DNA from: an uncultured virus (IMG/VR IMGVR_UViG_3300009167_000001)
Taxonomy: Duplodnaviria; Heunggongvirae; Uroviricota; Caudoviricetes
IMG/VR virus record: IMGVR_UViG_3300009167_000001
Length of the DNA: 64,000 nt
Strand: one strand, 5' to 3'
A program made the position numbers and the translations under genes. The notes under the pieces were generated by a model that saw only the letters and a program-made list of their open reading frames with translations, ran no database searches and was not told where the DNA came from. Of this stretch, positions 25,759-62,400 are shown piece after piece; within the stretch, counting starts at the first letter, position 1; each line of letters starts with the position of its first letter.

Positions 25759-25847
25759 TCCAGTGTGGCCGAGAGGAAAGGCATTCGGCTGTTAACCGAA
25801 AGTAGGAGGATTGAATCGCCTCGCAAGTTCGAATCTTGCCGCTGGAG
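25759..25847 (+). tRNA. tRNA-Asn(GUU) with a long variable region
   Basis: TTCGG-CTGTTAA-CCGAA followed by a 22-nt variable region. Confidence 0.8.
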
Positions 25848-25850
25848 TAA

Positions 25851-25936
25851 GGAGAGTTGCCAGAGTCAGGTAATGGGCCGGTTTGCTAAACCGAGACGAT
25901 GTAAAAGTCACAGTGGTTCAAATCCACTACTCTCCG
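25851..25936 (+). tRNA. tRNA-Ser(GCU)
   Basis: GGAGAGT/ACTCTCC; loop TTGCTAA; long V arm; G73. Confidence 0.9.
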
Positions 25937-25964
25937 TATAAGTAAACTATAATAAGGAAAGCAT

Positions 25965-26345: not shown

Positions 26346-26405
26346 TGGACTATGGTACTCGGCTACGAACCGGGAATAATATGGGTTCGAATCCCATTAT
26401 CGGGT
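26331..26405 (+). tRNA. tRNA-Arg(ACG)
   Basis: CTCGG-CTACGAA-CCGGG; overlaps the 3' end of the HNH gene. Confidence 0.88.
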
Positions 26406-26524
26406 CTAAGGAGGTTACTATGGAAGATTGGTTAATAACTACAATAATTGTAATGATAGTTCTTGGAATATTCTTTTGGAAAGCCGAATGGTTATATAAT
26501 TTAAGAAGAAAATAAGTAAGTTAT

Positions 26525-26608
26525 GGAAGTAGTCCGGTTGGTCGAGGGCGCTGTCTTGAAAACAGTTGGTGCTAATCACACTCAGGGGTTCAATTCCTCT
26601 TGCTTCCG
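26525..26608 (+). tRNA. tRNA-Ser(UGA)
   Basis: GCTGT-CTTGAAA-ACAGT; long V arm; G73. Confidence 0.88.
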
Positions 26609-26611
26609 TAA

Positions 26612-26682
26612 GCGGGTATGGTATAATGGCATTATGACAGCCTTCCAAGCTGACGATGCGAGTCCGATTCTCGCTACCCGCT
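26612..26682 (+). tRNA. tRNA-Gly(UCC)
   Basis: GCGGGTA/TACCCGC; loop CTTCCAA; U73. Confidence 0.92.
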
Positions 26683-26733
26683 CTGATAATTGAGCATAGT
26701 AAGTCGAGTAATAGTAGACAAACTAGGAGAAAA

Positions 26734-27345: not shown

Positions 27346-30300
27346 ATGAATGGAAAAGAAACTGATACTAGGAAGATTTTAGCAGATGAAGAAGAAGTTC
27401 TCTCAATTCTTAGAGAATTAGCAAAAACTACTATTTTAATAGATGATGATGAATCCCTCTATGGAGAAGTCTCAGAAGACTTAGTTATACGAGCTAAAAA
27501 AGCTTTAAGAAGAGGGGGAGGGGGAGGTTTTAGCGCAGGATAACGCAGAATTTTAAATGAACTTTACTAGAAAGGATTAACATGAAACTTCCAGCCGTTC
27601 TTTATCCCAATATTTTAATTAAAAATCTCTATCTCGATGGGCTAAATTGTAATGATGTTGCCCAAAAATTACGAGCAATTAAAGAAGGTCTATATCCCTG
27701 GTTGCAACAAGATGATATGAAACCATATGTTGAGCCTATCAAGAATGATATAGAATGGATTATTCCAGAATTAGAAGATTTAAGTGCTAGATTAGGAGCA
27801 GCAGCTATAGCTCTAGAACAGGGTAAAACTGCTGAAGAATCATATGAACTTTACAACCGTTTACGTCCTAGATATGCAGAGATAGATTATGACTTGTCTG
27901 AAATTGATAATAGATGAAACTCTTCCAGAAGGAGAAATTATCTTAGATAAAGAAAAAGAAATCCTTTTAGTAAGAAGCATGGAAGATTGGTTTAAATTTA
28001 TGAAGGAATATAATGATGACTGACTTAGCAGTACAACTAATTATAGACGAACTTCGTACCCGTCTATTTGAAGCGGAACAGCGAATAGATGACCTCAAAG
28101 AAGAGAATCTTGGGCTGAAATATGGCCTGGAAGAATGGAAAAAGCAAACCATAGGATTGCAAAATCTTTTAGCAGAACGTGATGAACGACTAATGTTGTT
28201 AGAAGAAGCAGCGAAAGCAACGGTAACTATGGCAACTGCCGGTGGATATCCTAATATTGATGAATTACAAGCTGTTCTGGAGATTAAAAATGAATCCTAC
28301 AGTTAAACAAATAATAGAAAAATGGCTTAAAGCCAATGGATATACTGGCTTATTCAATCAAGATTGTGGGTGTGAACTGGATGATTTAATGCCTTGTGCT
28401 GGCTGGGATAATGGTATAGACCTTTGTAGAGCCGGTTATAAACATACTTGTGATGGTGGTTGTGAAGAATGTTATAGAAATGAATATTGTGATATGGACT
28501 TTGAATTTAGTAATATGTATATTTCAGGAGAAAAATGAAAAGCTTCATTCATTTTGATGATATGACTTGGCCTAATCCTCTTGACCCATTAGAAATTGAA
28601 TGGAAACTATGCTATGCTCCAGATAGAGAAACTCAAATAGTAGCTGCTTCTTATATAGCAGCTTATAAGCAACTTATTTCTGACACGCAAAAAAGTAGAA
28701 ACTATAAGTGCCAAAAAATAAAGGAGCTTATGAATGGATGAAAAAGCAGAAATAAAGTTATTAAGAAGAATAGAAGTAGTTGCGGAAGAACTATATAAAG
28801 CCTTAGATGACTCTGAGTATACTATTGGAAGAATGTCTACTTTAGCGCGCGCTCATGAAATGTATTCTGAAGTATCTTATCGGCCAGCTATGAAAAAACT
28901 CCGTAAATTGCTCGGAGAGTATGAAGAAAAGTTCTTCAAATGATTTTTTGTAAGCATGATTATCAATTTGTCTGTAATATCTACGGAGACTGGATAATTT
29001 TTGTAGCCAACTGGAACCGTTCTTTATGGAAATGTAGTAAATGTAGCAAATATAAGTTCAGACCAGAACTAGTAAGGAGAAATAATGGATGAGGAATTAA
29101 AAAACTTTATCATAAAAGAACGCGAAAATGCTTATGATGAATATGAAAAGCATAGTGTTCGTATGGGATATGCCACTGGGTATTGGTTTGGTTATCTAGA
29201 TGCTCTTAATGCTATTTTGAAAGAGGTTAATAAGCCTTTAGTTACTCTTTGTGATAACACCATTCATGTAGAATCTCGCATAGACCCTGATGAAATGGCT
29301 AAATTAATTGTAGATGGTTTAAAACTAAGAGAAGATTTTTTAAAAGAGCAGGAATCTACTAGAATAACCCCTGAAGAGCTACATCGGGAATATAGAGGGA
29401 TGGGATTTGATTAATGGAATGGGTAGTGCTGATAATAATCCTTTTGGTGATACTGCATAGAATTCCCAAAAAACCCAAGAAAGTAAGTGACCGTAAAGAT
29501 AGATTCTACAGATTCATGGGATATAAGTAATGGTCTTCTACTTATTTTTTGTTATTTTTGCAGTTTGGTTTTTAATTAAATATACCTTACCTAAATGGAC
29601 ACTTATAATCGTAGGAGTCCTGATAAATTCCGTGTTTTTAGCTATAAATGGAGTATAATGTTTAAAGGAGTCTGTAAAGAAAAGGGTCTTTATTGCAGAT
29701 GTATCGGCTGCGAGAATAAAGAATGCAACTTTAAATACTGTAATCTAGACAAATGCCCAGTAGGAGCTTGTATTAATCATAGTGAGTATAAGAGGAAAGA
29801 TGGCAGCGACAAAAGCAGTTAAGAAAAAGCATTGGTATCTCATTACTATAACTAGTTGTGAGCTATGTTCGGCAGGAGAAACTATTCGTACTCGTATGTA
29901 TGGAGAAAAACCAAAAGACCCAAAAGAAAGACGAGAATACTTCTATTTTGCCTGTGATAGTCACTTTCTATAAAGGAGAAAAATGAAAGCAATAGAACAA
30001 TATAAATGTGAGATTTGTGGGGGAGTCTATAGTACTCCCGCGCAAGCAGAAAACTGTGAAGCCAAGCATAGCAAAATCATAAGTACAGAAGTAATGTTCC
30101 AGCCTAACCATGTAGAACCTAGCCAAGTAAAGATAGTGACTGAAGGTAAGGATGGAAAGAGAAAACAGAAAACCTATGGTCTTTATAAGAACTGGTATTA
30201 AGGAGTAAAGAATGTATGTAGGATATTTCTTAGAAATTGAGCAACATCTGGCGGCGGCTAAATTCGGTGTCTATCTAATACAAGACGGCTGTAGTGAAGA

Positions 30301-30576
30301 ACTAGAAGAAGTATTAGAAAGTCTAGAAAAAGCTAAGATAGCACTAAGAGACTTAACACTAGAGCTAGAAGCAAGCAAGTGAAATACCATGCTTATTTTA
30401 ACTTTCGTACTGGTTATGTAGATGTTTTCACTAGTGACGGCATGAAATATCAGGTTACTCTGGAGATAATAAAAATGCATAGGCTGGCTAGAATGGACTC
30501 AGAAGGATATCGTGGTGCAATCTTATTAACTCCAGAAGAAGTAGCTATAGAATTAGTAAAAAGAATCAGATACTAG
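27346..30576 (+). other. Run of small, tightly packed hypothetical genes (about 60-110 aa), several Cys-rich
   Basis: Consecutive + ORFs with SD sites and overlapping stop/start codons. Confidence 0.6.
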
Positions 30577-30632
30577 AAAAAAGTGGTTATCCTATAAGAA
30601 TCAGATACAGTAAAATTAAGGTTATCCTATAA
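30561..30632. repeat. Imperfect tandem repeat (~35 bp x2) at the left edge of the GC-rich island
   Basis: AAGAATCAGATAC...GGTTATCCTATAA twice. Confidence 0.8.
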
Positions 30633-30821
30633 ACAGGTAGCCGCTGCGGTACTCACCGCTTGGTTTAATGGTACGCTCCTTGTACCATTGTGCGGCTCGC
30701 GCTTCGCTCGCGAGCAAGCGGTACAAGAGCCGGGAGCGCTCGCGCGCTCGCGCTTGCTCCCGGCTCCAATCATGTAGCGCACCGCTCTTGCGTATGCGGT
30801 GCGGAGATCGCCGCTCCCGCT

Positions 30822-31076
30822 CTAAGCGAGCGGTGCGAGAATGACGGTATACAAGCCGGTAGACTTGCTCCGCTTGATACTGGCGGTAGCTTTCGCTCCC
30901 GCGCTTTCGATTGCCGCTTGCGCGGCCTTGAGAGCCGCAACCGGCTCCGTGCTCACGCCGTTAGGCTGTACCGCAACCGGCTTGCCCGTTTCGGCAAGCT
31001 TGGCAAGTAGAGCGCTCCAGTCGCGCGCTGGCTTACCTCTTCCCGGCTTGCTGTACTCTTCCCAATCACTAAGCAT
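30822..31076 (-). CDS. Hypothetical protein (MLSDWEEY...)
   Basis: AAAAGAGGTA SD precedes the ATG at 31076. Confidence 0.65.
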   Translation of the reverse strand: MLSDWEEYSKPGRGKPARDWSALLAKLAETGKPVAVQPNGVSTEPVAALKAAQAAIESAGAKATASIKRSKSTGLYTVILAPLA

Positions 31077-31203
31077 AGATACCTCTTTTCCGTGCCGCTC
31101 CAATCGGCACTATAAGCCGAGAGCCGGTTTCCCGGCTCTCGCTCTTGCGTGTTACTTGTATATAGCACGGCTCCGCTCGCGCTAGTACATTTTGCAACCG
31201 GCT

Positions 31204-31914
31204 CTAGATATCAAGGCCCCATTTACTTACGAGCCGCGCGTGCCGCTCTTGTGCCTCTTGCCGCTCTTGCTCGTGCGCTCGCTCGTACCTCTTCCGCCAT
31301 GCGGCTCTAGCTCGCTCGCTTTTGAGCGCGGGAGCGCGAGCCGGTATGCTGGCGGGAGATCGCCGCATACGCTCCCGCTCAAGCCGTGCCGCTTGCTCTT
31401 GCTCTAGATACCATTTTGCGAGCGCTCTAGCCGTCTTGCCGCGCTTGATTGGCTCGCGCTCGGCTAGTACTAGCTCGGCTTGCTCGCTCCAGTCGTGCGG
31501 CTCTAGCAAGCTTGAGTCTAGACTTGTGGAGCGCGGCACCCATTGAATACCGGAGCGGAGCAAGCGACGACGACGACGACGGCTCGTATGCTCTAGAAAA
31601 GAGCCGTGCGGCTTGCGGTATATGTCTTTTCCGCTCCCGGTTGATTGGAAGTCTTCCGCGCTCCACTTGCGTATTTTGAGCGCTCCGCTCCCGCTTGTCT
31701 CGCTCGGCACGAGCCAAACCCCAATCGAGCACGGCTCTATATAGAGCGGTATCGGCTCCCGCGCTTGATACCATGCGCGCTTGAGCGCTCTTACGGTCGC
31801 TTTCGGTACCTCTTGCACTAGTACCGCGCTCCGCTCGTGATTGGCTTGCTCCGCATACTCGCGGAGCAATCCAGCGAGCAAGAGCCGCTCTTGCTTTTGC
31901 TCTTCCCGGTTCAT
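31204..31914 (-). CDS. Hypothetical Arg/Glu-rich protein
   Basis: 236 aa; same AAAAGAGGTA SD. Confidence 0.65.
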   Translation of the reverse strand: MNREEQKQERLLLAGLLREYAEQANHERSAVLVQEVPKATVRALKRAWYQAREPIPLYIEPCSIGVWLVPSETSGSGALKIRKWSAEDFQSTGSGKDIYRKPHGSFLEHTSRRRRRRLLRSGIQWVPRSTSLDSSLLEPHDWSEQAELVLAEREPIKRGKTARALAKWYLEQEQAARLERERMRRSPASIPARAPALKSERARAAWRKRYERAHEQERQEAQERHARLVSKWGLDI

Positions 31915-31919
31915 TCTTG

Positions 31920-32204
31920 CTACCTCTTTTCTTGGCTTGTATCTAGAGCAAGCGCGAGCGCGGCAAGCGCTCGCTCGTGTTCACCGCTCGCGCGGTATAG
32001 CTCTTCCGCCGCTCTTGCGTTCATTCCCGGTATCTTGGCTCCCACCGCATAGAGCCGCGCGAGTGTAGCTAAATCGCTCGGCTCCGTCGCTCGATACCGC
32101 CAAGCGACGTTATGCGCTCGCACCCCTAGCTCAAGCGGAGCAAGAAATTGCTCGCACCGCTCCGCGCGCTCCCGCTCCGCGCGCTCCCATCTTGTCTCTT
32201 GCAT
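31920..32204 (-). CDS. Hypothetical protein
   Basis: 94 aa; same AAAAGAGGTA SD. Confidence 0.65.
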   Translation of the reverse strand: MQETRWERAERERAERCEQFLAPLELGVRAHNVAWRYRATEPSDLATLARLYAVGAKIPGMNARAAEELYRASGEHERALAALALALDTSQEKR

Positions 32205-33075
32205 CTTGTACCTCTTTTCGGCTCGTGCCGCGCGGTGCGCGGCTCTAGATAGATACTAGCACGATATCGGCACAAGAGCGCAAGCGCTCAAGTATGCCGA
32301 ACGGAGATCGCCGCTCGGCACGAGCGAGTTATCGAGATTATCGGGAGTTATCGCGGCTCGATAACTCCGCGAGCAAGAGCGCGGCTCGTATGCTCGCGCG
32401 AGAGCATACCGGCTCGGCTCGGCTCCGGCTCGGCTTGCCGCTCGTATGCTCTCCGGCCACGCATACGCTCAAGCGCTCGCGCTTGGCTCGTATGCTCTCC
32501 CGCCAGCATACCGGCACGAGCGAGCGCGGCTTGCTCTATATAGAGCGGGAGCGAGCGCGGCTCGCGCTCGGCTCGTATGCCGAACGGAGATCGCCGCGCT
32601 TGAGCGCTCGCAAGCGCTCGGCTCCCGGCTTGCTTTCGGTACTATCAAGCGCTCGGCTCGTGCTATGGTACGCATATACCGAAAAAAGGCTCTATAAATC
32701 CCCTGCTAATCGGCACAATTTAGAGCCGCGGGGAAGAGCCGGCAAAAAGAAAAGAGGTAGTAAATGGTACTATTAGCTCGAATAATTGAACATATGCTTA
32801 CTCGCAAGCGATATCGAGATATCATAGAATGATATCGCGCTGAATCCTGGTCCAGTGGTATAGCCAATAGACCATTCAATGGTATATCAAATATACCAAA
32901 GTGAACATTTGTTTGGTCTAAAGGCTATACCATTAGGCCATTCGTGTAGGTGTACGCGCTCGTGTAGGTGCGTATAATAAGAAGTCCGTACCAATTTTTT
33001 ATCATAAGGCTTTCGTACCAATTTTTCTAAAGTGTTTTTTAACACGCGCGTATGTAGAAAAGGGGTGATAAATCA

Positions 33076-33585
33076 ATGTTAGATGATTGGGAAGATTTCG
33101 AAAGCGAAAAGACAACGCACGAGCAAAAACGACAGTTGAAAATAACAGCAACCCGAAGGATTGAGAAACTCAAATCTGAGGGTGTGAAGATTAAATACTA
33201 CGATTACGGACGGCAGATGGTGTACAGAAACGAATGGGATGCTCATAAGAAATTGGGTAAGCCTATTCAGATGACAATTGCGGAGATGAGGGCAGAAGCG
33301 GAGAGAATCTTTAAGGATGAACGGGTTATGGAAATTGACCCGTATCCTGGTGAAAAGATTTATGTTGAACCGAGTGTGAGAGATGGTGCTGTAGCCAAGC
33401 CTTTTCAGAGGCGAATGAGGTTTGGTACTCTGAGAGATAATTTTACTCTCTTGCATGAAATCGCTCATATTCTTGCGGTAAACGACCTTCATGGAGACGA
33501 TTTTTGTAAGGTATTGTGTTCCTTGCACGAATGGTTTATCTCTGAAGAGAATGGAAAGATACTCCGAGAAGCCTTTGGGGGGTGA
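33076..33585 (+). CDS. Putative HExxH zinc metalloprotease (SprT-like)
   Basis: TLLHEIAHIL....HGDDF; AAGGGGTGA SD. Confidence 0.65.
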   Translation: MLDDWEDFESEKTTHEQKRQLKITATRRIEKLKSEGVKIKYYDYGRQMVYRNEWDAHKKLGKPIQMTIAEMRAEAERIFKDERVMEIDPYPGEKIYVEPSVRDGAVAKPFQRRMRFGTLRDNFTLLHEIAHILAVNDLHGDDFCKVLCSLHEWFISEENGKILREAFGG

Positions 33586-33790
33586 AACAAAATGGCTTTT
33601 CAAGTAGGTGATGCAGTATTGGTAAGTGAATCATACTGCAAACATTGTGATGACCTAATTGGTAAGGTTGGAGTTATTAAAAGAATCCAATCTGCTGATA
33701 TTCAAGTACAAATTTCTCCTGATTTTCTGAATGGTTGGGGGAAAGAGTATTTGATATGGTGTCCTGAGAACGGAATCGAGAAGGTGTAGA

Positions 33791-33824
33791 TAATCCAATC
33801 CTGACTTCGGTTGGGATTACTTTT
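33791..33824 (+). terminator. Probable intrinsic terminator
   Basis: TAATCC...TTCG...GGATTA hairpin then CTTTT. Confidence 0.45.
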
Positions 33825-34047
33825 CTTACGGCAGTAGATGAGGGCATTAAGTAATTCATATATTGCTCTTCTGCAATTCACTAATCTAACCTGATTGCAG
33901 AAAAGAGCAGATATTGATTACTGAAACCCCCATTTACTGCCTTTTTTTGGGTTCTGCAAAAAAAGCTAATTCGACTCAGATAGCCATTTTTAGTGGTGAC
34001 GAAGTCGAATAACCTGTATATGTACAGAAAGCAAACCTAGAAATAGG

Positions 34048-38882: not shown

Positions 38883-39370
38883 TTCCAGTAAATAAAGAAC
38901 TAGGAAAGGAAAGTAATGTCAAAATATGTAATGGTTTTGAACGATGGTGAAACTTTTACTGAATTGAACGATTGTTTTGTTGCAGAATTTCCTAAAGATT
39001 ATTCAACTGAACAAGTGGAAGAAGCTCTAAGGAATGGAGAGGATATTTTCAAAATCTATTTTGAAGAACATCATGGTGTTATTCACATGGATATACAGAA
39101 AACTGTTCCTCTTAATATCAACATTGAATAGCTGAAAGGAAGTAAAGTGGAAACAATAAAGCAGGAATTGATGGATATGCGGGATACCATGAAAGCTATG
39201 GCTGAAAATGAGTATCAAAGGACTACAAAAGAAGAACGTGAAATCTTTGAAGTTACTCATCCCGCATTTCGGTTGGGATATTCAATGGCCTATGATATGG
39301 CTGTGCATCGTATTAACAATCTGCTAGAAAAAATAGATAATCTAGCTGTTGGGTGAAGTTAGTTTTATTT

Positions 39371-39443
39371 TGGAGTAGAGCTTATGAGGACAAGCAATCG
39401 GCTGATATCCGATAGATAGGTGGTTCGAATCCACTTACTCCAA
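39371..39443 (+). tRNA. tRNA-Ile(GAU)
   Basis: ATCGG-CTGATAT-CCGAT; GGTTCGAATCC. Confidence 0.88.
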
Positions 39444-39481
39444 TTTTAGTTCCAATCGAAGAAAGAAGGTGATATAATATA

Positions 39482-41521
39482 ATGGAACTAGAGCTTAACA
39501 CTTGGTTTGTTAAGAAGACTCGATTGGGTTCTGTTTTTATAGATGGCGAGATTGAAAGACAAACTGAAAAAGCTATTCTATTTAATGGAACTGCTGTCAT
39601 AAAACCATCGAACATTTGTTGCTGTTGTGGTAGACTATTAACTGACCCTGTATCAATTGAATTAGGGATTGGTCCTATTTGTGCTGGTATAGACCAAAGA
39701 GATTCAATGACTCAGGAAGAAAAAGATGAGTATGTTAAAAAGTATAGTGCTGCTCATCATATTCAGTCTTGGATACCTAAATCAGCAATAATGAATAAAG
39801 AGGATATACCGCTGGAAGAGAAAAAGACAGAAATTGAAACTGAGCCTGATGTTCAGGTGATAGTTCATAAAGATAGCATACTCATAAAGAGCAAATATGA
39901 GTATGCTGATTTTTGTCGTTCTATTCCAGGTGGAAAATGGAACAAGGAAAGAAAGTTCTGGTATTATCCTTTTTCCAAAAGCACGGCTAAGGCAGTAATT
40001 GAAACTTTTGAGAGTGTAGAGAATAGAAGTATTTCTCAAGAAGTTATTGATGCTGCTGATGATTTGATAAAAGCTCAAGAGATTAAATCAGCAGATGAAT
40101 TGCCCGATATTCCCATAACTAAAAATGAACCGTGGCATCACCAGAAACAATGCTATTGGTTTTCAAAAGAATTGTCTGGTGCTGGTCTGTTAATGGATAT
40201 GGGAACTGGTAAGACTAAAGTTGCTATTGATTTGATAATTAACAGTGACGATAAAAAAGTTCTTATCATCTGCCCTGATAAAGTCGTTAGAGTATGGCCG
40301 AAAGAATTTGAAAAGCATTCTGATTCTGCTTTTGTAATTGTGCCATGTGAAGTTCGTGGTAAACGAATTTCTGTAGAAGAAAAAGCTGCTATAGCTAGGG
40401 CTGCTTATGAAGAAAATGAGCAAGTTGTTATAGTAGTTAACTATGAATCTGCATGGCGCAATTCTATGGGTAAATTTATCAAAGACAGTGTGTGGGATAG
40501 AATAATTCTTGATGAATCTCATAGAGCAAAGCAGTTTGATGGAAAAATTGGGAAGTTTGTTGGAGAGTTAAGTGCATGGAGAAGAAATATCTTAACTGGT
40601 ACTGTAATGCCTCATTCTCCAATGGACGTATTTTCTCAGTATAAATTTCTAGACCCTGGTGTATTTGGAACAAGTTATTATAAATTTCGTAATCGCTATG
40701 CTGTAATGGGTGGTTATATGGGAAAACAAATCATAGGATATCAGAATCAGGATGAAATGCATGACAAAATCTATTCGATTGCATTTCGTGTAACCAAAGA
40801 TATCCTTGATTTGCCAGAAGAAAACCATATAGTTCGTGACTTTGACCTCAATGATGAGGCTATATACTATTATAACCAAGCAAGAAGTGAAATGGGCATC
40901 CTCTTAGGTGATGCTAAAGTCAGAACTGATATAGTAATTGTTCAAATGCTAAGGATGCAGCAAATTACTTCTGGTTATCTGCCGATAATGGAAGAATATG
41001 AAGATGATGAAGGTAAAATTAGGCAGAGACTAGCGAGAACTGAAAGAATAGACTCTGGTAAAGCTGAACTACTTGAGGAAATTCTTGAAGACATTGATGA
41101 ACATGAGCCTGTTGTAGTCTTTTGTAGATTTCAGCATGACTTAGATGAAGTTAAAGCTGCTGCTGAAAGACTTAGCAGAACATATGGTGAGATTAGTGGC
41201 CGTAGTAAAACAGCTTTATCTGATAGAGCAGAATTGCAAGACGGAATTCAAATTGCTGGTGTTCAAATTCAAGCCGGTGGTGTAGGAATTGATTTGAGCA
41301 AAAGCCATTATGGTATCTATTATAGTGTTGGTTATAGCCTTGGTGATTACGAGCAATCATTAGCTCGTATTCATAGGCCAGGACAAACACAACCTGTAAT
41401 TTATTATCATCTGGTAGCTGCCGGTACAATTGACGAAGTAATCTATGGAAATCTCAAGAACAAAAAAGATGTGGTCAATTCCATCATGGAAACAAGGAAA
41501 CTAGAAGGGAATGAATACTGA
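39482..41521 (+). CDS. SNF2-family helicase with N-terminal Zn-finger (DUF6011-like) region
   Basis: MDMGTGKT, ILDESH, LTGT, QS.ARIHRPGQ; N-terminal C..CGR.LTDP.S...GIGPIC. Confidence 0.9.
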   Translation: MELELNTWFVKKTRLGSVFIDGEIERQTEKAILFNGTAVIKPSNICCCCGRLLTDPVSIELGIGPICAGIDQRDSMTQEEKDEYVKKYSAAHHIQSWIPKSAIMNKEDIPLEEKKTEIETEPDVQVIVHKDSILIKSKYEYADFCRSIPGGKWNKERKFWYYPFSKSTAKAVIETFESVENRSISQEVIDAADDLIKAQEIKSADELPDIPITKNEPWHHQKQCYWFSKELSGAGLLMDMGTGKTKVAIDLIINSDDKKVLIICPDKVVRVWPKEFEKHSDSAFVIVPCEVRGKRISVEEKAAIARAAYEENEQVVIVVNYESAWRNSMGKFIKDSVWDRIILDESHRAKQFDGKIGKFVGELSAWRRNILTGTVMPHSPMDVFSQYKFLDPGVFGTSYYKFRNRYAVMGGYMGKQIIGYQNQDEMHDKIYSIAFRVTKDILDLPEENHIVRDFDLNDEAIYYYNQARSEMGILLGDAKVRTDIVIVQMLRMQQITSGYLPIMEEYEDDEGKIRQRLARTERIDSGKAELLEEILEDIDEHEPVVVFCRFQHDLDEVKAAAERLSRTYGEISGRSKTALSDRAELQDGIQIAGVQIQAGGVGIDLSKSHYGIYYSVGYSLGDYEQSLARIHRPGQTQPVIYYHLVAAGTIDEVIYGNLKNKKDVVNSIMETRKLEGNEY

Positions 41522-41963
41522 TGAAACAAAAAATCGGAGATAATACACTTACCCTTCTAGAAAAAGAAGATAAGTGTAAATGTGGAAGTAGAACGTTTGA
41601 TATAGTACACGGATTAACTGTTGTTGATACTCAAGATATAGAACATGAAGTTGTTGTATGTCTTGAGTGTGGCACTATGTATGTGACGCAATAATAAGGA
41701 GTATGTAGTAATGGAAGATATAGAAGATACTTTCTGGCAGGAATATAGGTATGGAAAATCATTGAGTATTAGACATACTGGATATGGTGATACTCATGTA
41801 ATTGCAAGAACTGATTATGATACAGAATGTGATGCAGAAAGACGAGTAATAAATATGGAAACCTATTCAGTTAGTGGACCTTTTGCCTTAGCAAAGGCAA
41901 ATGAAGTCTTCAAGGAATGGCTTGCATTAGAATTGGACTTGAGTGTAAATAAATAGTAACGCC

Positions 41964-42040
41964 GTGGCCGTAGTTCAAATGGTTCAAGAACGATAGGTCG
42001 TGACCCTATCTAAATGTGGGTTCAAATCCCATCGGCCACT
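41964..42040 (+). tRNA. tRNA-His(GUG) lacking encoded G-1
   Basis: GTGGCCG/CGGCCAC; ATAGG-TCGTGAC-CCTAT; preceded by C, discriminator U. Confidence 0.82.
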
Positions 42041-42328
42041 TTAGTCTAGTAAAGGAAAGAAAATGAATTGTGCAGAATGTGGGATAGAATTGAAACCCGT
42101 TTGTGGTGAACCAACAGATTATCAATTTGAACACGCTCTTTGGATTGAATTATGGGGCGGCTATGATATGTTTATTGATAATACTGGGCCATTTCATGAG
42201 GAAGTTAAAGCAGTTTTGTGTAGAGACTGTGCTTCTAAATTCATGGAAGAAAACAAATGGGCATGGAATTTGCTGAAAGGTATAACCATTATTGATGCTG
42301 AAATAGCCTGGAAGAAACAAGGAGAGAA

Positions 42329-42826
42329 ATGAAAAGATGGGTAGTAGCTGATACTCATTTCGGCCATGCCAATATAATTGAATATTGTAGTAGACCATTT
42401 TCTTCTGTAGAAGAGATGGATGAAGTTCTGATTTATAATTGGAACTCTGTAGTAGAGAAAAAAGATTTGGTCTATCATCTAGGCGATTTTGCTTTTGGAA
42501 AAGGTTCCAAACAAAAGATTGCTGATTATAGAGCAAAACTCAATGGTCAGATTTTCCTTTTTAGAGGAAATCATGATAGAGAAACCAAAACTTGGTACAA
42601 CAGAATGGGATTTGATTTTGTAGCTGGTGGAGATTATTGGATTTATGAACCTAATGTTCTTCTATCACACAAACCATATCCTATAAGAGTACCTATGATA
42701 AACATTCATGGGCATACTCACAATCTAATGCACCTTGTTGAATCCAATCTCTATTATTGTGTTTCAGTAGAGCAAATAAACTACACTCCAATAGACCTTG
42801 ATGAACTAATAAGGAGTCTTAGATGA
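42329..42826 (+). CDS. Metallophosphoesterase, phage type
   Basis: ADTHFGH.NII, YHLGDF, RGNHD, LSH.P, IHGHTH. Confidence 0.85.
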   Translation: MKRWVVADTHFGHANIIEYCSRPFSSVEEMDEVLIYNWNSVVEKKDLVYHLGDFAFGKGSKQKIADYRAKLNGQIFLFRGNHDRETKTWYNRMGFDFVAGGDYWIYEPNVLLSHKPYPIRVPMINIHGHTHNLMHLVESNLYYCVSVEQINYTPIDLDELIRSLR

Positions 42827-43434
42827 AATGCTTTAGGAAAAAAACCCCTAAACAAATAACCAAAGACCCAAAAGAATGTGAACATGATTGGTCTGAGTGG
42901 ATTCATTATAGAGATGGGTTTGAAAGAAGTCTTTTTGGTGGATGGGCTATAGTATGGCAAATCCGTAGATGTAAGAAATGTGGTTTTGAACAGCTATATA
43001 GAACCACACTTTAAGGAGTCTCAGATGGAATTTGATTTCGGAGATATGGTGGAAGTTGTTAAAACTTCGGCTTATACAAGTGAGTATCATAGAGCAGTTG
43101 GTCATTATGGAGTAATAGTAGGAATTAGTATCTCACACCAATTTTGGCAGGTAATGTTTTGGAATGGTAACTATCCTTTACATTTCAAAATAGAAGAATT
43201 AAGGAAGGTAGAGAGGAAGTCTTAGATGATGGAATACTATGAAGCTGGTTTAGGATTCCTATTGTATATTGGACTACTTTGTATTTGGTGGCGCAGAGCA
43301 ATAGATAGGGGTGAGTTTGATTGATAGCGATAATTTTCATAGGAACTTTGATTGTTGTCTCAAGCATTTGGTGTTATTACTCGATAAAACATCAAAGTAA
43401 CCATAAAGCCTCTAAGGATTTGTGGTAATATCAC

Positions 43435-43505
43435 AGTAGATTAGTGTAATGGCAGCACAAGAGATTCCAAACCTCTTAGTAAGGGTTCAAATCCTTTATC
43501 TACTG
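43435..43505 (+). tRNA. tRNA-Trp(CCA)
   Basis: AGTAGAT/ATCTACT; loop TTCCAAA; G73. Confidence 0.85.
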
Positions 43506-43629
43506 CTTAGGGATTTACTGAGGGAAATGAGCTTAGTAGATTGGTGGAGTGGATGCGTAGGCTTGAAACTAATTGGTAAGCAAATTAGTTAATAGTATGA
43601 CAGACGCAGGTAAGTAAATCTCTTATTTT

Positions 43630-43716
43630 GCTAGGGTGGCAGAATTGGTTATTGCACTCGGCTGTAACCCGACAGTATGCATTAAGGCATTGGTGGTTCG
43701 AATCCATCCCCTAGCA
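43630..43716 (+). tRNA. tRNA-Tyr(GUA)
   Basis: Loop CTGTAAC; long V arm; A73. Confidence 0.88.
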
Positions 43717-43932
43717 CCTAAGTAAAAGAAAGGAGTTGCTTGTGACCGAGGAACAGGAACATTTGCTTGAAGAATTTGAAAAAGCAAGAAAAGAACTTTA
43801 TGCTAATACCAAGGATGGCAAACAGTTTCATAGATTTGAAACTTTATATGGATTGGCATATAGAAAATTAGTCAACGCTGGATTGAAACCTAAACTGAGG
43901 CTTAAACATAGGCCGATGTATTAAGGTTAATT

Positions 43933-45978: not shown

Positions 45979-47031
45979 TTGATTGAAGAAGTGATTGAAG
46001 AAGTCACTAAGATAATCTCTCCAATTTATCTTGTTGGTGGCGCTGTAAGAGACTATATCATGGATAAGGAAGTAGATGATTTTGATTTCACTACTCCCCA
46101 TGAGCCTGATGTAGTTGAAACAATACTAAAAGAGAAAAACCCCGGAAGATGGGTTGGCACTACTGGTAAAAGCAAGGGTACGATAGGTACTAAAATCTAT
46201 CTACCTAAAAACGATTGCTTTGTCAAAATAGAAATCACCACGTTTCGTGATGAAGAATATGAAGAAAACAGTAGAAAGCCTAAAGTGACGTTTGTTAAAT
46301 CTCTAGAACAGGATTTGATTCGTAGAGATTTTACCATGAACGCCATTGTAATCCGTCTGAAAAAGGGTCATTTTCATTTCATAGACCCTGTTAATGGTAT
46401 GGATGATATTGAGAATAAAATCATTCGTGGTGTTGGCAGTTCTAAACAAAGATTTAAAGATGACCCTGTAAGAATGCTTAGAGCCGCTAGATTTGCTTCT
46501 ACTCTTGGTTTTGAAGTTGAAGAAATGACTAGGAAAAGAGTAGCAGATTGCGCTCCTAGACTTCTTATAACATCAAAAGAAAGATGGATGATAGAACTTG
46601 ACAAACTTCTAATGGGTGATTATGTAGCTGAAGGTCTTAATATTCTTGCAGAAACAAGGCTTCTAAACTATATGATTCCTGAACTAGCTCTACAGGTTGA
46701 TTATGACCAAATGACTCCATATCATGACTTTACTCTTTGGGAACATACTGTAAAAGTTGTTGAAGCAGTACCTAAAGATATTGATTTGAAATGGGCTGCT
46801 CTGCTTCACGATGTTGGTAAGCCTTTTGTTGGTAAAATAAAGCACAACAACCCTGAACAGAAAACTTATGTTGGTCATGAGCTTGTTGGTGTGGAGATTA
46901 CCACCAAAATTGGTAGATATCTGAGATGGAAAAATGATAGGATACAAACCGTTTCAGAAATGGTTGGTGGTCATCTAACTGATAGTAGTGTGTTGAAAGG
47001 CTATGATTCAGGCGCACAGAAAAGAGAATGA
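45979..47031 (+). CDS. cca: Class II tRNA nucleotidyltransferase (CCA-adding enzyme family) with HD region
   Basis: YLVGGAVRD, D.DFTT, EITTFR, DL.RRDFT.NA, RF.DDP.RMLRA.RF, AALLHDVGKP. Confidence 0.92.
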   Translation: MIEEVIEEVTKIISPIYLVGGAVRDYIMDKEVDDFDFTTPHEPDVVETILKEKNPGRWVGTTGKSKGTIGTKIYLPKNDCFVKIEITTFRDEEYEENSRKPKVTFVKSLEQDLIRRDFTMNAIVIRLKKGHFHFIDPVNGMDDIENKIIRGVGSSKQRFKDDPVRMLRAARFASTLGFEVEEMTRKRVADCAPRLLITSKERWMIELDKLLMGDYVAEGLNILAETRLLNYMIPELALQVDYDQMTPYHDFTLWEHTVKVVEAVPKDIDLKWAALLHDVGKPFVGKIKHNNPEQKTYVGHELVGVEITTKIGRYLRWKNDRIQTVSEMVGGHLTDSSVLKGYDSGAQKRE

Positions 47032-48963: not shown

Positions 48964-49197
48964 ATGGCTGAATTTGTTACTTTCAATCTTGCTGTACAGG
49001 GTGAGCCTGTTCGTCCGTGCGAAGTTCCTGCTGGAACAACTGTAGGTGATATGAAGATTATCAAAGGTCTTGACCTTGATTTGGAATTTCGTCTTCATAG
49101 TGAACCTATTGATGACGATTTTGAACTTGATGACTACAGCATTGGCTGTGGTGATTATCTGATTGGCACTAAAGATGCCAAAGGTGCTGCTGTTTAG
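48964..49197 (+). CDS. Ubiquitin-like (beta-grasp) protein
   Basis: 77 aa; 'EVPAGTTVGD', 'FRL...', 'GDYL', C-terminal KGAAV; AAGGAG SD; first gene of the E2/JAB/E1 cluster. Confidence 0.75.
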   Translation: MAEFVTFNLAVQGEPVRPCEVPAGTTVGDMKIIKGLDLDLEFRLHSEPIDDDFELDDYSIGCGDYLIGTKDAKGAAV

Positions 49198-49207
49198 CAT
49201 CTAAACT

Positions 49208-49249
49208 GAGGGAGAGATGAGGATTTATTTCCTTGTCTCTCCCTCTTTT
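49208..49249 (+). terminator. Intrinsic terminator between the Ubl and E2 genes
   Basis: GAGGGAGAGA/TCTCTCCCTC stem followed by TTTT. Confidence 0.7.
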
Positions 49250-49271: not shown

Positions 49272-51140
49272 ATGCAAATATTCTTACCAACCTCTGAAAG
49301 AGAAGATTTTCAGTACTTTCTTCAAGAGAAAACAGAAGTTACTCATTATGTAGCTTTTTACAGAACAAATAATGGAGTTTATTCTCAACTTGCCTGGGAT
49401 GATGTAACTTTAACTTATGATAAAGTAAAAGAGTTTTGGGCTGAATATGACACAAGGAATAGAGCTATCTATTCGCTGGAAGATGGATTTGTAATATCTG
49501 CTGCTGAAGATGAAAAATTTACACATTTTTTCTATGGTAATCTCACTGGCTCTGGTTTGTCAAGAAAAGAATCAGATTTTACTGTGGATGCTGCTGTTTG
49601 TGCGTCTAAACTTGAAATAGATTTTCCACTGGCAGTAGAGTTTAATCCATCTAATTATTACATGATTAGAAATGTTCCTACCATAATTCTTCTTGGTAGA
49701 GAAGTATGGAGAAATCAAGGACAATATGCTCTTGTAAATAGTCCACAAGGCGTGGCGTTTAGAAATTTGGCGAACCTTATATTTATGCCAAACTCTATGG
49801 TTACTATGGAGAGTCTCTATTTCATTCAGGAAAATCGAGCTAACTGCATAGTATTACCGTTTTGTGTTATTAGAAAAAATGAATTAGGCTTTGGTAACAC
49901 TATCTTACTAAACTCAGTAATGTTTAGTGAAGATACAATGAGTGGAATAAAATCTATCTTTGAATTGCTGAAAGAGGATTTCTTCTGGAAGAAACTTCTT
50001 ATTCCTCTTGCCTTTACTGACTTTGAAACTTTAAAAACTGAGCTTGAAAACCAGGAAATTCCACTGGCCTTGCAAGCCAAGGCATTTATTCTTCAATCAA
50101 AAAATGGTCTACTGCTTGACATAAAGACTTTGAATGAAGCAAATGCAATTATTTCTGAAGAAATAAGCGAGCTTATTACAGAAATAACAGATAAAAAACT
50201 AACAATAGACCGGGGAGAGCAGCAGATAGCTGAGAAACAAAAGGAGTTTGAGAGTGCATTAAGTTCTACTAAGCTTGAAGACGAATTTAAGAAAGTAGAA
50301 ACTCTTCCCTATGTTACAAAGTTGACTTTTACTTCTGAGGGAATGGCAGTTTATACAGAACCTATTCAAATTGATAATGGACCTTTTCTTGGTGGATATA
50401 AGATTGTTTACAATCCAGCCACAAGGAAATTGGCAATTTTCAATGAAGTTAATCCAGTAACTAAGGATGGCCTATTAGCGCATCCTCATGTACCGCAGGG
50501 TGGTCTACCTTGTTTTGGTAATTATAGTGATATCTTTTTCAGGTTTGGTACAGGAGAATTTTATGTAGCCATAGAAGAATTGTATAGATTCTTAGGTGCA
50601 TATAATCCAGAAGATACCTGGGGAAGACGTATGTTATATTGGGATGATGAATTTTACTACAAGGATATGAAAGAGCGAGAGCTTCTCCATCTATTAGGAG
50701 ATGCTCATGATAGAAGATATCATGAAATAACAGGTGAACATTTGCCTTGCATAACAATTTGTTCTGAATGTGGTGAACCTGCGCGTACTTGTGCTTGTAA
50801 TATTTGTGAAGTATGCCAAAGACCGGAAGATGAATGTGAATGTTGGATTTGCACAAGATGTGGTGGAAATATAGATAATGGGGATTGTTATTGTGATAGA
50901 TGTGACCAATGCCATGAACTAGATGAAAACTGTGAATGTGATAGGTGCGAAGATTGTGAGGGTCTTCTAGACTATAACCATTACGGTTTGAATGGAGCTT
51001 GTGAATGTCCTAGATGCCCTGATAATTATGACCATAGAATTGATGAAGATGAAGATGAAACTTGTATGGAATGTCATGAATGGGAATGTCAGTATAATCA
51101 GAATAATGAGCCTCATCAAGAAGAAAGGTTGTTTGAATAA
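49272..51140 (+). CDS. Multidomain E2 (UBC-fold)-like protein with coiled coil and Cys-rich C-terminal repeats
   Basis: HPHV...G.PCFG followed by helices and 'YNPED'; repeated CxxC...CxC tail; AAGGAG SD. Confidence 0.75.
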   Translation: MQIFLPTSEREDFQYFLQEKTEVTHYVAFYRTNNGVYSQLAWDDVTLTYDKVKEFWAEYDTRNRAIYSLEDGFVISAAEDEKFTHFFYGNLTGSGLSRKESDFTVDAAVCASKLEIDFPLAVEFNPSNYYMIRNVPTIILLGREVWRNQGQYALVNSPQGVAFRNLANLIFMPNSMVTMESLYFIQENRANCIVLPFCVIRKNELGFGNTILLNSVMFSEDTMSGIKSIFELLKEDFFWKKLLIPLAFTDFETLKTELENQEIPLALQAKAFILQSKNGLLLDIKTLNEANAIISEEISELITEITDKKLTIDRGEQQIAEKQKEFESALSSTKLEDEFKKVETLPYVTKLTFTSEGMAVYTEPIQIDNGPFLGGYKIVYNPATRKLAIFNEVNPVTKDGLLAHPHVPQGGLPCFGNYSDIFFRFGTGEFYVAIEELYRFLGAYNPEDTWGRRMLYWDDEFYYKDMKERELLHLLGDAHDRRYHEITGEHLPCITICSECGEPARTCACNICEVCQRPEDECECWICTRCGGNIDNGDCYCDRCDQCHELDENCECDRCEDCEGLLDYNHYGLNGACECPRCPDNYDHRIDEDEDETCMECHEWECQYNQNNEPHQEERLFE

Positions 51141-51943
51141 TGGAAACTCCTAAAACAACTTTGTGGATTCCTCCAGAACTTTATGCAGAATTAATGTATT
51201 ATGCTCATAATGTAAACACAGAAATCGGTGGTTATGGTTTAATTGAGATTGATAAGGAACACAATGACCTGTTAGTTGGAGAAGTGTTTCTCACTGAACA
51301 AGAAGTTCATGGTTCAAAATGTGACCTTTCTGCTGCTGGTCTAGCAATTTATATGGAAGATTTAATTGCTAGGGGAGAACAAGATAAAATTGAACAGATT
51401 ACTTTGTGGTGGCACTCTCATGTAAATATGTCACCATCACATTCTGGTCAAGATGAAGATACAATGCTTGAATGGCCTAGCAATTATGTGGTATCCCTGG
51501 TAATAAATCGCAAGGGAGATATGAAAGCTCGTCTAATGTCTAAAACTCCAGTAATAGTTGCAGGAGATATAGATGTAGCAGTTGACTGGCTTGATAATGA
51601 AAGTGCTGAAGTATTAAATCAAACTATAGAAGATAAGGTAAAGGAATATACTCCCCCAAAGCCCGAGATAGTTGTTCAGGGTCAATTGCAACCAACTCCA
51701 AGAGGAAATGGTGGATACAGCCCGTATGGATGGCCTCAAAATTATTGGGGCGGTTATCAAAGCTGTATGGATAAAAAGCCAGAGAAAAAGGCTCATGAAC
51801 TAACTGATTCTGAATGGAAAAATGAGCAAGAACGGCTTGATGCCGAAATAAATGCCTGGGAAAACAATGATATTGAAGGAATCATCAAGTATGGTGGTCT
51901 AGATGAAGCTGAAGCTAAGGCAATAAGAGAAATGTGGGATTAG
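51140..51943 (+). CDS. JAB/MPN+ metalloprotease (deubiquitinase-like)
   Basis: N-terminal EIGG and WWHSHVNMSPSHSGQD (HxH-x7-S-xx-D). Confidence 0.85.
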   Translation: METPKTTLWIPPELYAELMYYAHNVNTEIGGYGLIEIDKEHNDLLVGEVFLTEQEVHGSKCDLSAAGLAIYMEDLIARGEQDKIEQITLWWHSHVNMSPSHSGQDEDTMLEWPSNYVVSLVINRKGDMKARLMSKTPVIVAGDIDVAVDWLDNESAEVLNQTIEDKVKEYTPPKPEIVVQGQLQPTPRGNGGYSPYGWPQNYWGGYQSCMDKKPEKKAHELTDSEWKNEQERLDAEINAWENNDIEGIIKYGGLDEAEAKAIREMWD

Positions 51944-52602
51944 TTATGACTGAAGCTTACACTAGAAGTATAGGAATTTTCAACCCCGATAATTCCCGAC
52001 CAGTAGCTATTCTTGGTTGTGGTTCTGTTGGTTCTTTCGTAGCCTTGACATTAGCCAAAATGGGAGTACAATCTCTACATCTTTGGGATGGTGACACGGT
52101 TGGAGAAGAAAACATTGGTTGCCAGAATTTTGGTTGGGAACACTTGGGTATGCCAAAGGTTGAAGCAGTAAAAGAAGTCATAATGGCTAATTCTCCAGTT
52201 AAGAGTGAGAATATCCATTGTCACAATGAGTTTATCGGACCAGACACTAGGTTGCCAAAGATTATCACTGTTGTAGCAGTTGATAGCATGACAATACGAC
52301 ATTTGATTTGGGATAAGCTCAAGAACAAAGTACCATTGATAGTCGATGGGCGCGTAGGTGGGCAGATAGTAAGAGTATTTAATGTACTTCCGACAGAAGA
52401 ATTCTCAATATACTATGAGAAATATCTTGTGCCAGAAGAAAAGGCATTAGAGCTTCCATGTACCGAAAGAAATGTCGCCTATGTTGCCAATATAGTACAA
52501 GCTATAATAGGGAGAGCCATACGAAATTTTATTGTAAATGGAAGAGTGGAGAAAGAAATCGGTATTGATGTTGCTACATTTATTAACTATGTAAAGGAAT
52601 AA
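51934..52602 (+). CDS. ThiF/E1-like Ubl-activating enzyme
   Basis: GCGSVGS, LAKMGV, DGDTV...NI..Q, G.PKV, AVDS, DGRVG; candidate catalytic Cys in ELPCTER. Confidence 0.9.
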   Translation: MGLVMTEAYTRSIGIFNPDNSRPVAILGCGSVGSFVALTLAKMGVQSLHLWDGDTVGEENIGCQNFGWEHLGMPKVEAVKEVIMANSPVKSENIHCHNEFIGPDTRLPKIITVVAVDSMTIRHLIWDKLKNKVPLIVDGRVGGQIVRVFNVLPTEEFSIYYEKYLVPEEKALELPCTERNVAYVANIVQAIIGRAIRNFIVNGRVEKEIGIDVATFINYVKE

Positions 52603-52850
52603 TGATGAAAGAAAATAAAGCATTCTCTATAACCCCTGCTGAAATTCCTCCGAGAAAAGGAAAATCCAGCAAATATGTTGCTAGTGTAGAACAATTTTTA
52701 GCCTCAAATGAAAAGGCTGGAAAAATAACGCCAGAAGGCATAAAACTCAATGCGGTGTATTCTGGCTTTCATAGAGCAATAAAAAACGGATACTCTGACA
52801 AAGTAACCCTTTGTAGGGTAGATGGAGAGCTTTATATTGAAAAGCTCTAA
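52602..52850 (+). CDS. Small basic hypothetical protein coupled to the E1 gene
   Basis: 82 aa; start overlaps the E1 stop; IPPRKGKSSKY. Confidence 0.5.
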   Translation: MMKENKAFSITPAEIPPRKGKSSKYVASVEQFLASNEKAGKITPEGIKLNAVYSGFHRAIKNGYSDKVTLCRVDGELYIEKL

Positions 52851-59305: not shown

Positions 59306-59313
59306 TTGTAATT

Positions 59314-59400
59314 GGGCGAGTGGCGGAACTGGCAGACGCGCTAGACTTAAAATCTAGTCTTTGGGAAACCGGGGTGCGGGTTCAATTCCCGCCTTGCCCA
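59314..59400 (+). tRNA. tRNA-Leu(UAA)
   Basis: Canonical Leu D arm GGCGGAACTGGCAGACGCG; loop CTTAAAA; long V arm. Confidence 0.92.
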
Positions 59401-62400
59401 TTAAACAAACGGAGGATATAGTGAATATAACACAAGGGTATGCTAATTTTTATGGTTGGACTGATGTAGAACCTTATGAAATAGTTCGTGTAGTATCTGA
59501 TAAATGTATTGAAATTAGAGCTATGAAAGCAGAACGCAGTTCTTCATGGAAACCAAACTGGATTCCCGGTGGTTTTTCTCTTGTATGTCTTAACAATATG
59601 GAACAACAATGGATTGTATCAATAGATACAGAGGCACCAATCATAAGAGCGCGATTGCATAAGGATGGAAAATGGTATAGCAAACGTGGTAAACATCTTT
59701 TAGAGTATATACCAAAAAAATATTACGACTTTAATTTTTAAATGGAGATTTAGAACTATGAAAAGAAAAGAACTTTTAGCTCTTCCTAAGAGGGCTTGGG
59801 ATGATGAATCCTTTTATGACTCAGTTTTGATAATTCCATCAGGAAGAAAGCATGATTCTGGTTATATGCTGATTGCTATAGTAGGAGTTATAAAAGGAGA
59901 GCCTAAAGAAATAGCCGCTTATTGTGATGATATTCACTGGATTGCTCCTGCTCCTGTAACGTTTGGTTCAGGATTTCAAGTGGGAGATTTGAGAACCGAT
60001 ATGTTTTATCCCAGTGGAATTATGCAAATGTGGGGAAGAGGACAATTTAAAGTCGGTCTTAGTCTTAGCAGTACTGATATAACTTTTATAAGGAGCTAGA
60101 ATGTATTGGAACTATCGCATAGTTCATTTTGTTACTGACCTTGGGGATTACTATGACCTTCATGAAGTATATTATGATGACGATGGTGTTCCTTTTGCTC
60201 GTACTATGGATGGAAAAGCCTATGGTGAAACCGAAGAGGAAGTAATAGAAGCACTAGAAATGATGTTAAGAGACGCTAAAAAGGCTCCTGTCTTAGAGGA
60301 CAAGGAAATAAATAATGAACGCTTTGATGAATTGGAAAGAGAGGCTGGAGTATCCGACTAAATTATTACTAGGTTTAGTAGTTTTTGATACGATAGCGTC
60401 TTATGTATTCTGGACAAATAACTGGATGACAGAAGAAAATCCCATAATGTTATGGGCGTTGCAGAAAGGATGGGCATATTGGGTTATTAAAATAGTTCAA
60501 TTGGGTCTTGTTTTAATACTAGGCTATTTCTATGCTAAAAATAGAAAAGCAAGGTTCGCAACTTGGTTACTTGTAAGTGTGTTTACTTTTGTATGGGTAC
60601 AATTTTTTATAGGGAGTATATTATGACTAATGTTGAAGCAATTAAAGACGCTCTTAAAGCTGGTACTGAACCTAGAATGATTTGTATGACTTGTCCGTGG
60701 GATAGGTTTTGTTTAACTCCCCCGTCTATGACTTCTTTTGACATTGAAAACCAGATAAACAAAATGAAAGAAGAAGATGAAAAGGCTTCGGAGAAAGATG
60801 GAACAAATCACTTCATGGGTGCTATGATGGGAACCATATTGTTTACTGGTAAAGATACACAAGCTACTCTTTGCCCTATAGTAGTTAATAGACTTCAAAC
60901 TTCTGATGGGCGCAAAATTGTAGACTCTATTCGTGATATGATGCAGGACTGGGAAGACTAAATGGAAGATGCTGAAAGATATAAGGAAGCTCTTGAATTC
61001 CTTCAAGGAAGATTTGAGTGGGGAGTAGCCGAAGCAGTAGCTCATTATTATGCTAGAGCTATTGACTATTTGTTTGAAGGAATGACTTGGGATGAAGCAC
61101 TAGATTTTGAAGATGATGGAGATGATGAGGATTAGTATGTTTCATGAATCAAGAGGAAAATACACAGTTTATCGTGTACATACAAAGTATGGAGAATTTA
61201 CCTTTAGAAAGGAGTTGGAAGCAGTTAACTTCATGCTAGATATAGGAACCGGGAGACTTCCAATGATGATACTGGACTTTGACCATCTACCAGAAATCTA
61301 TACTACACAAGAAGCTATAACTGAATACAGTAGAAGGAAATCATGAGTGAGAAAATTATACCTTTAGATAGTGAACATCGTATTGTTGTAACTCAGCGGT
61401 GGGATGAAGGTGGGTATAATGTAGAAAATATAAAGGTCGAGCGTTGTTGGGAAAGTAGATGGGAAGAGCCTAAATGGTTTGAAGACCACGCTACTTCTAC
61501 TCCATTAATTCAAGCCGCTTGGTGGGCGAGTAAGTGGTATCATGAAAAGAATGAATCATGAAACGCTGGACAGTAGGACCAAATAATAAGTATAGTAATT
61601 ATTTCTTCTCCATTGAGATAGATATTCCAGAAAATGAGAAATATAAAAAAGAAATACTAGCTTTTCTTCGTGACCATATAAAGTTAGGTGCTAAAACAGC
61701 AGAGAAGATGGCAGAAGGTCCAGTACGAGTAAAGGCGGGAGTATAATGTATATCTGGAAGTATCCTATTCCCATTGAGGACGAGTTTGAAATTGAAATGC
61801 CTTATGATGCCTTGGTGTTGTGTGTTCAAATGCAAGGAGATACTCCGTGTATTTGGGTAAAGACTACGGGAACTGATAGGCTGGAGAAGAAGAAATTTTC
61901 TATAATTGGAACAGGGAATCCTTTTAATCCAAGAGGACTTTCTTACATAGGAACGTTTCAGCAGTATGGTGGTAAATTAGTATGGCATCTCTTTGAAAGG
62001 TGGACTTAATAAATGTTAATGTTATATGGAATGCTGGGAGTCTTCTTTCTATGGTTGGTCATTATTATCTATTTGTGGAGAAATGATGACCTTTATGGAT
62101 TTGAAGATGTTATAGCAACATTTGTACTCATTGTATTTATTGCCAGTGGAATTTTTTGGGGTGGGTTAACTTTTGGTCTTAGTTGGCTTGGTAATTATCA
62201 TGAGAAGGTTGGAGAATATCAATTAGTAGCTTTGAAAGATACTGGAAGGGTTGAAGGCTCCTTCTTCTTAGGAACTGGATATTTTCAAGGTTCCGCTGCT
62301 TATAGGTATTACTATCAACTTGATGAAAACTTTATTGCTATGAATCAAAGAAATTTTAGTGATGGTTTTATAACCTATATTACTGATGGTAGTTATCCTA

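Follow-up and report, generated by a model that had tools for sequence, protein, structure and literature searches.

What does the Cys-rich tail of a phage-encoded E2-like protein contribute to a predicted ubiquitin-like conjugation pathway with no separate E3 gene? This question is raised by a 64,000-nucleotide stretch of DNA (the window) from an uncultured virus of the Caudoviricetes (IMG/VR record IMGVR_UViG_3300009167_000001), in which the genes for a putative ubiquitin-like protein (Ubl), an E2-like protein with a Cys-rich tail (P0001, 622 residues; open reading frame (ORF) 49272..51140), a JAB/JAMM peptidase and an E1 adenylase follow one another on the + strand, which carries every feature given below in the form start..end. 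The preliminary description of this DNA noticed tandem Cys-rich repeats at the end of P0001, and suggested that they may form a multi-Zn module for target recognition or oligomerisation, possibly a built-in E3 or substrate adaptor. The tail comprises the last ~130 codons of the ORF, and its architecture was found to be real: five tandem CxxC-x6..14-CxC knuckles (residues 497–579, 50760..51008), each predicted to hold one metal, are followed by a capping four-Cys cluster, C582-x15-C598xxC601-x4-C606 (51015..51089), which is a predicted sixth metal site and whose motif occurs in 25 of 48 arrays. The tail of this phage E2 combines an unannotated modular Cys4 repeat with a lysine desert, and the desert is newly noted here. 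Our preferred reading, given a probability of about 45%, is that the tail may act as an acidic arm that has no catalytic role, captures proteins close to the E2~Ubl thioester and would be Lys-free to escape self-tagging.

All 24 Cys of the tail, which fall within 110 residues, are invariant in the 17 aligned close sequences, and they fit six predicted Cys4 metal sites, most likely for Zn. W525, R543, L550 and R581 are also kept, and hydrophobic positions are conserved. A structure model of residues 330–622 had a mean predicted local distance difference test (pLDDT) score of 91.4, with 10-residue blocks across the knuckles and cap at 78–94. The multiple metal sites are hence retained as a prediction from the pattern, the invariance and the confident model, and Zn itself is our assignment. 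Matches in fold searches with this model were taken up by the E2 core (model residues 1–136). A complex prediction of the E2 core and tail with an 82-residue protein encoded downstream and 4 Zn scored 0.00, and counts neither way.

Repeat number was compared across homologues, as the preliminary description had proposed. The homologue set drew on the best 150 of 209 phmmer matches to residues 287–622, a query that included the tail, so that tailed proteins are over-represented. After removal of a near-duplicate (P0002), fragments and motif-less rows, 145 of the 164 proteins retained a usable HPH..CxG core. No unit was present in 98 of these E2 cores, one in 3 and two to eight in 44, giving an overall range of 0–8. 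A tailed clade of 44 proteins (FastTree support 0.999) consists of 40 multi-unit, 3 single-unit and 1 unit-less members. CxxC opened the array in all 48 examined; of 213 units, 133 had a spacer of 6 residues, and 156 of 168 linkers were 2 residues long. Whole units were gained or lost among relatives (seven in P0008, three in P0024). The single-unit proteins and this whole-unit gain and loss indicate that the unit is a self-contained four-Cys knuckle, and not half of a cross-braced RING. Since most relatives are without it, the tail is an optional accessory for the conjugation chemistry. The same repeat was found on four distant E2s (P0101, P0110, P0112 and P0147). Independent gains of the tail are not claimed, as the tree needs 5 changes and a single origin was unrejected (approximately unbiased test, p 0.143, 40 of 145 rows).

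This pattern does not bear out a built-in E3 of the RING type. RING domains follow the consensus C3HC4 or C3H2C3, with eight ligands in one cross-brace and His at ligand 4, whereas the phage tail is a sequential four-Cys repeat of variable copy number, missing altogether from 98 of the 145 HPH..C cores. No conserved ligand His was found in the array, a RING regular expression was absent from P0001 and gave a loose match in 1 of the 164 proteins (P0033), and the RING families of Pfam were unmatched by P0001, 18 aligned members, 52 further homologues and the tail alone. The tail nevertheless shares with RING and Prok-RING E3s a Cys-rich metal module linked to an E2, and it has a lysine desert in common with San1 and Slx5. 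These likenesses, along with the rare bacterial RING-type E3s cited in PMC10557695, would speak for a true cis-acting E3, i.e., a RING-like allosteric activator of E2~Ubl. Such an E3 is highly unlikely, because the consensus and Pfam matches are missing, variation by whole units from 0 to 8 is unlike a fixed cross-brace domain, and the tail (net charge −28) and the Ubl (net charge −10) are both acidic.

The Cys array was also considered as a metal or redox buffer or sensor, binding Zn, or Fe in an anaerobic host, and gating the catalytic Cys of the E2. The density of 24 Cys in 110 residues and the CxC pairs, which are metallothionein-like, are consistent with this idea, as are the absence of a structural CxxC zinc pair from the E1 (0 in 8 of 8 sequences) and the reported allosteric inhibition of human UBE2O by zinc (PMC12835413). 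Fixed spacing, conserved hydrophobic positions and the confident fold model fit structural sites instead, and buffering leaves the lysine-specific loss described below unexplained; a sensor is therefore rather improbable. A further alternative is that inter-chain metal sites drive oligomerisation or filament formation. Repeat arrays could provide multivalency, and among the Ubls encoded in Bil operons are some that dimerise or phase-separate (PMC10557695). The six predicted intra-chain Cys4 sites, however, use up the 24 Cys exactly, self-association is made less likely by the strong negative charge, and the coiled coil of P0001 is a more obvious dimer element, which leaves oligomerisation by the tail with very little probability.

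The second property of the tail is its composition. Residues 497–622 have a net charge of −28 and contain zero Lys; the last Lys is residue 467, leaving a Lys-free C-terminus of 155 residues (468–622, 50673..51137). Across 45 tails Lys amounts to 0.5% (17 of 3535 array residues and 10 of 1765 residues after the arrays), compared with 6.2% in the bodies of the same proteins; 30 tails are entirely without Lys, and the tail is Lys-poorer than its own N-terminal part in 45 of 45 cases. Equally acidic 40-mers from other ORFs served as a control and contained 5.4% Lys (58 segments of the window) and 6.9% (70 segments of the loci), and other CxxC neighbourhoods contained 6.6% and 4.7%. When Cys and the Arg preceding Cys are set aside, the tails hold 112 Arg versus 27 Lys, whereas Lys exceeds Arg in the acidic controls. 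Likewise, among variable polar alignment columns, 5 of 47 in the tail contain Lys, versus 102 of 164 upstream. GC bias does not explain the loss of Lys, because 47 of the 126 tail codons are one substitution away from a Lys codon and the DNA is 32% A. In eukaryotes, lysine deserts limit the autoubiquitylation of San1, Slx5 and Hrd1, and one is also found in the substrate receptor VHL (PMC13696103). A role as a target or partner adaptor, akin to the substrate adaptor of the preliminary description, is plausible, with indirect support from the acidic lysine desert.

Several observations weigh against a capture arm that is Lys-free to escape self-tagging. P0084, P0115 and the cluster-mate P0180 have no E2 motif, yet end in Lys-free CxxC-x6-CxC arrays, so the loss of Lys may belong to the repeat itself or reflect charge selection. 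Acidic extensions of tail-less relatives are Lys-poor too (1.2% versus 3.7% in bodies; 42 of 100 proteins, extensions of at least 25 residues), and two other ORFs of the window have longer Lys-free runs (178 and 176 residues versus 155). The tails are related, so that the counts are non-independent and their significance is overstated. Any role of the tail must be optional, given the 98 unit-less cores and a member of the tailed clade with zero units (P0041). No target or binding partner was found in this analysis, and target recognition could equally well reside in the N-terminal glutamine amidotransferase-like domain of P0001.

The E2 to which the tail is attached is a multidomain protein. 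Its N-terminal region (49272..50021) gave middling fold matches, eL22-like alpha/beta for residues 1–80 and class-I glutamine amidotransferase-like (ThuA/GATase1-like) for residues 81–250, and is followed by a long helix or coiled coil (residues 262–330, 50055..50261). The core (50268..50645) has the UBC/RWD fold that characterizes E2 enzymes and contains H404-P-H406 and the candidate catalytic C414 at nucleotides 50481–50513. These residues are invariant in 122 of 122 sequences, with HPH in place of HPN. Thioester formation and Ubl transfer are predicted for this E2-fold core from its sequence. The phage would thus encode a thioester-type Ubl conjugation pathway, in which the JAB peptidase would trim the Ubl after KG(G/A), the minimal E1 would adenylate it and load it onto Cys172, and the Ubl would pass to Cys414 of the E2 and on to lysines of target proteins without a separate E3. 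The tail is envisaged as beads on a string, whose Cys4 metal knuckles would stiffen and lengthen the short acidic C-terminal extension of many family members, and the arm may hold basic targets or partners by the charged active site. A precedent is UBE2O, in which an acidic site recruits basic substrates (PMC12818219). Both this E2/E3 hybrid and Cdc34/UBE2R (PMC10873206) are works-like models of an E2 with an appended acidic recruiting element; homology with the phage E2 is limited to the UBC fold, and where the phage E2 has a metal-knuckle array, they have SH3-like domains or a flexible tail.

Cdc34 also provides a model for a simpler role, in which the tail docks the E2 to its own partners, E1 or JAB, or is a generic polyanionic spacer, without any choice of target. 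The Cdc34 tail accelerates E2–cullin association (PMC10873206), the phage E1 is a minimal 218-residue ThiF without extra domains, and acidic extensions are common in tail-less relatives (29% D/E, 42 of 100). The E1 (net charge −2 to −6 in 7 close loci) and the Ubl (−7 to −10) would be poor charge partners for such a tail, and the 24 invariant Cys with the conserved W525, R543, L550 and R581 suggest specific surfaces, making docking or spacing alone unlikely. Another role is suggested by the terminal motif Q-[ED]-[EDN]-x-L-F (residues 616–621, 51117..51134), namely that the array is a Lys-free arm presenting Q-E-E-x-L-F to a replication protein, e.g., the host beta clamp, and tethering the E2 there. 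Of the 45 clade proteins, 18 carry the motif at their C-terminus or close to it, as against 0 of 103 outside, and the operon directly precedes helicase and primase genes in the window and in locus L002 and a helicase-like gene in the distant phage L014. The published clamp consensus is QL[SD]LF (PMC3716654, PMC12867686), with five-residue spacing, which the tail motif did not match: its Q-x3-L-F is one residue longer, and its second position is acidic. The motif is moreover missing from 27 of 45 clade proteins, and the gene position may be plain synteny, so that a clamp tether is quite unlikely. No beta-clamp or Pol III alpha gene was found in the three virus records searched, of which two have Pol A. 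Locus L001, a viral record that matches P0001 at 100%, carries a Pol A gene as well. As a separate observation, phage Pol A proteins (L019:12964-14862 and L017:835-2703) have in common the peptide QDSLF at about residue 90, spaced like the canonical clamp motif.

The other operon genes agree with the pathway outlined for the capture arm. The putative Ubl (77 residues, 48964..49197) has a net charge of −10, an inferred beta-grasp fold and the C-terminus KGA-AV; its relatives terminate in KGG plus two residues, and K73-G74 is invariant in 9 of 9. A Pfam search with this ORF gave no match. A terminator-like hairpin of 16 pairs with a T run was detected by sequence scan between the Ubl and E2 genes (49208..49245), which would yield Ubl in excess of E2. 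The JAB/JAMM gene (51140..51943), whose start overlaps the E2 stop (TAATG), encodes E28 and H92-x-H94-x7-S102-x2-D105, the full JAMM motif, and its product matched Pfam Prok-JAB with E 8.9e-4, short of the family's own cut-off. The E1 gene (51946..52602) encodes a single-domain minimal ThiF adenylase (Pfam ThiF, E 1.7e-16) of 218 residues with invariant P171-C172. Its stop is overlapped in the window by a gene for a conserved small basic, Lys-rich protein (82 residues, net +5, 52602..52850), which trails the E1 gene in 7 aligned loci. This protein matched no family and was not seen in L014, and its membership in the conjugation system is unproven. The gene order Ubl-E2-JAB-E1 was uncontradicted in 12 of 12 related loci (L002–L013) as far as their contigs extend, all four genes lying within the contig in 5 of them.

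The same four-gene order, again followed by a helicase-like gene, was observed at L014:4335-7033. The Ubl of that phage has an acidic N-terminal extension and a natural end at KGA, its E2 (227 residues) has a different Cys/His-rich tail, and its JAB has a Cys-rich tail of its own. Because both of these proteins are Cys-rich-tailed, metal-binding appendages appear to recur in this family. At L015:1151-2431, on a contig titled as a Pacearchaeota metagenome-assembled genome, a tailed-clade E2 appears to share its reading frame with a Ubl-like N-terminus on the other side of a masked stretch, which may be a fusion or a masking artefact. At L008:3168-4054, JAB and E1 are separated by two inserted genes, of which the first seems to be broken into two ORFs and contains a CxxxCxxC motif, which we take to be radical-SAM-like. 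L016, located in a purine operon, was rejected as a false match.

Among known systems, Bil (BilABCD, type I/II) likewise encodes Ubl, E2, JAB and E1 each in a gene of its own (PMC10557695, PMC11601596), and also shares a Ubl made with residues after Gly, Cys-based chemistry and the lack of a separate E3 gene. Bil is a host defence, whereas the system here is phage-encoded. The Bil E1 is composed of IAD-AAD-CYS and a four-Cys zinc site, unlike the lone 218-residue ThiF with 0 CxxC of the phage, and the phage E2 differs in being a 622-residue protein with a GATase-like domain, a coiled coil and a knuckle tail. For Bil, the E2 is only proposed as the target selector (PMC11601596). Bub (6E/DUF6527) shares Ubl, E1, an E2 fold and JAB, and is described without an E3 in the available text (PMC11601596). 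It uses Tyr/Ser oxyesters, fused genes and BubE, in contrast to the invariant Cys in E1 and E2 and the unfused genes of the phage operon; it is excluded because these Cys are retained and the genes are unfused. No DUF6527 match was found among 16 neighbouring proteins scanned, and no BubE-like gene was seen. The PRTRC system, class 6d of Iyer 2006, likewise has, on mobile DNA, unfused genes for a Ubl, a JAB, an E1 and an E2-like protein that bears a Cys (PMC1779556). As far as that source describes it, the class 6d E2 has no canonical His and a downstream His, whereas HPH precedes the Cys in the phage E2, and class 6d has an alpha-helical protein, for which no partner gene was identified in the phage operon. 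The PRTRC ThiF model scored 24.5 bits versus a cut-off of 144.75. Phage-encoded ubiquitin-like ligases named 'Pub' have reportedly been described.

Database searches are consistent with an unannotated family. Neither the E2 protein nor its tail matched any family at E < 0.01 in Pfam, PHROGs, NCBIfam or PADLOC, and the Ubl was likewise unmatched in PADLOC. The tail gave nothing significant against PDB sequences (best E 0.54), alignment searches gave weak or coiled-coil matches at most, and core and tail were unmatched among 50,697 GenBank phage records. In the ESM Atlas, the tail was unmatched and residues 1–460 led to unnamed, mostly viral clusters only, and Foldseek against viral models found two uncharacterised phage proteins at E <= 0.001. 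Word-seeded tail searches were uninformative, giving 6 and 16 candidates only and missing known relatives. No locus was found by viral scans with P0049 and with alignment A4, nor a second tail-like array in records G001–G004. In the titles and abstract openings searched, mostly non-subscription, there was no paper on the phage E2 family or the repeat; the supplementary operon tables for Bil and Bub could list relatives.

The surrounding window is GC-skewed phage DNA of ~36% GC and encodes 21 tRNAs, a tRNA nucleotidyltransferase-type gene, a DnaB-like helicase and a primase. The tRNA genes lie at 24246-26683, 39370-43718 and 59313-59401. The nucleotidyltransferase-type gene (45979-47031), of the CCA-adding/poly(A)-polymerase family and with an HD domain, is also found upstream of the operon in L002, L005, L010 and L011. 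A 4-kb block at 30000-34000 has 48–53% GC without GC skew, and a promoter scan stayed at chance level (20 versus 16.6 ± 3.7).

Returning to the acidic capture arm, a broader reading can be put forward tentatively and with some doubt: that of an E3-free phage system whose E2 would itself select the targets, by means of an expandable array of acidic, Lys-free zinc knuckles serving as a non-RING substrate receptor, and which would tag basic nucleic-acid-binding proteins of host or phage during infection. The copy number would then shift by unit duplication, and the desert would be a convergence on those of eukaryotic E3s. At the level of sequence, the lysine desert hints that the phage pathway genuinely tags Lys and that the active site can reach the tail. 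Confirmation would give E3 lysine deserts a counterpart in a prokaryotic virus, with no sign of a proteasome link. For the question of target choice in E3-less prokaryotic Ubl systems, the E2s of this family, with anywhere from 0 to 8 knuckles on one catalytic core, form a natural series that lends itself to deletion and swap.
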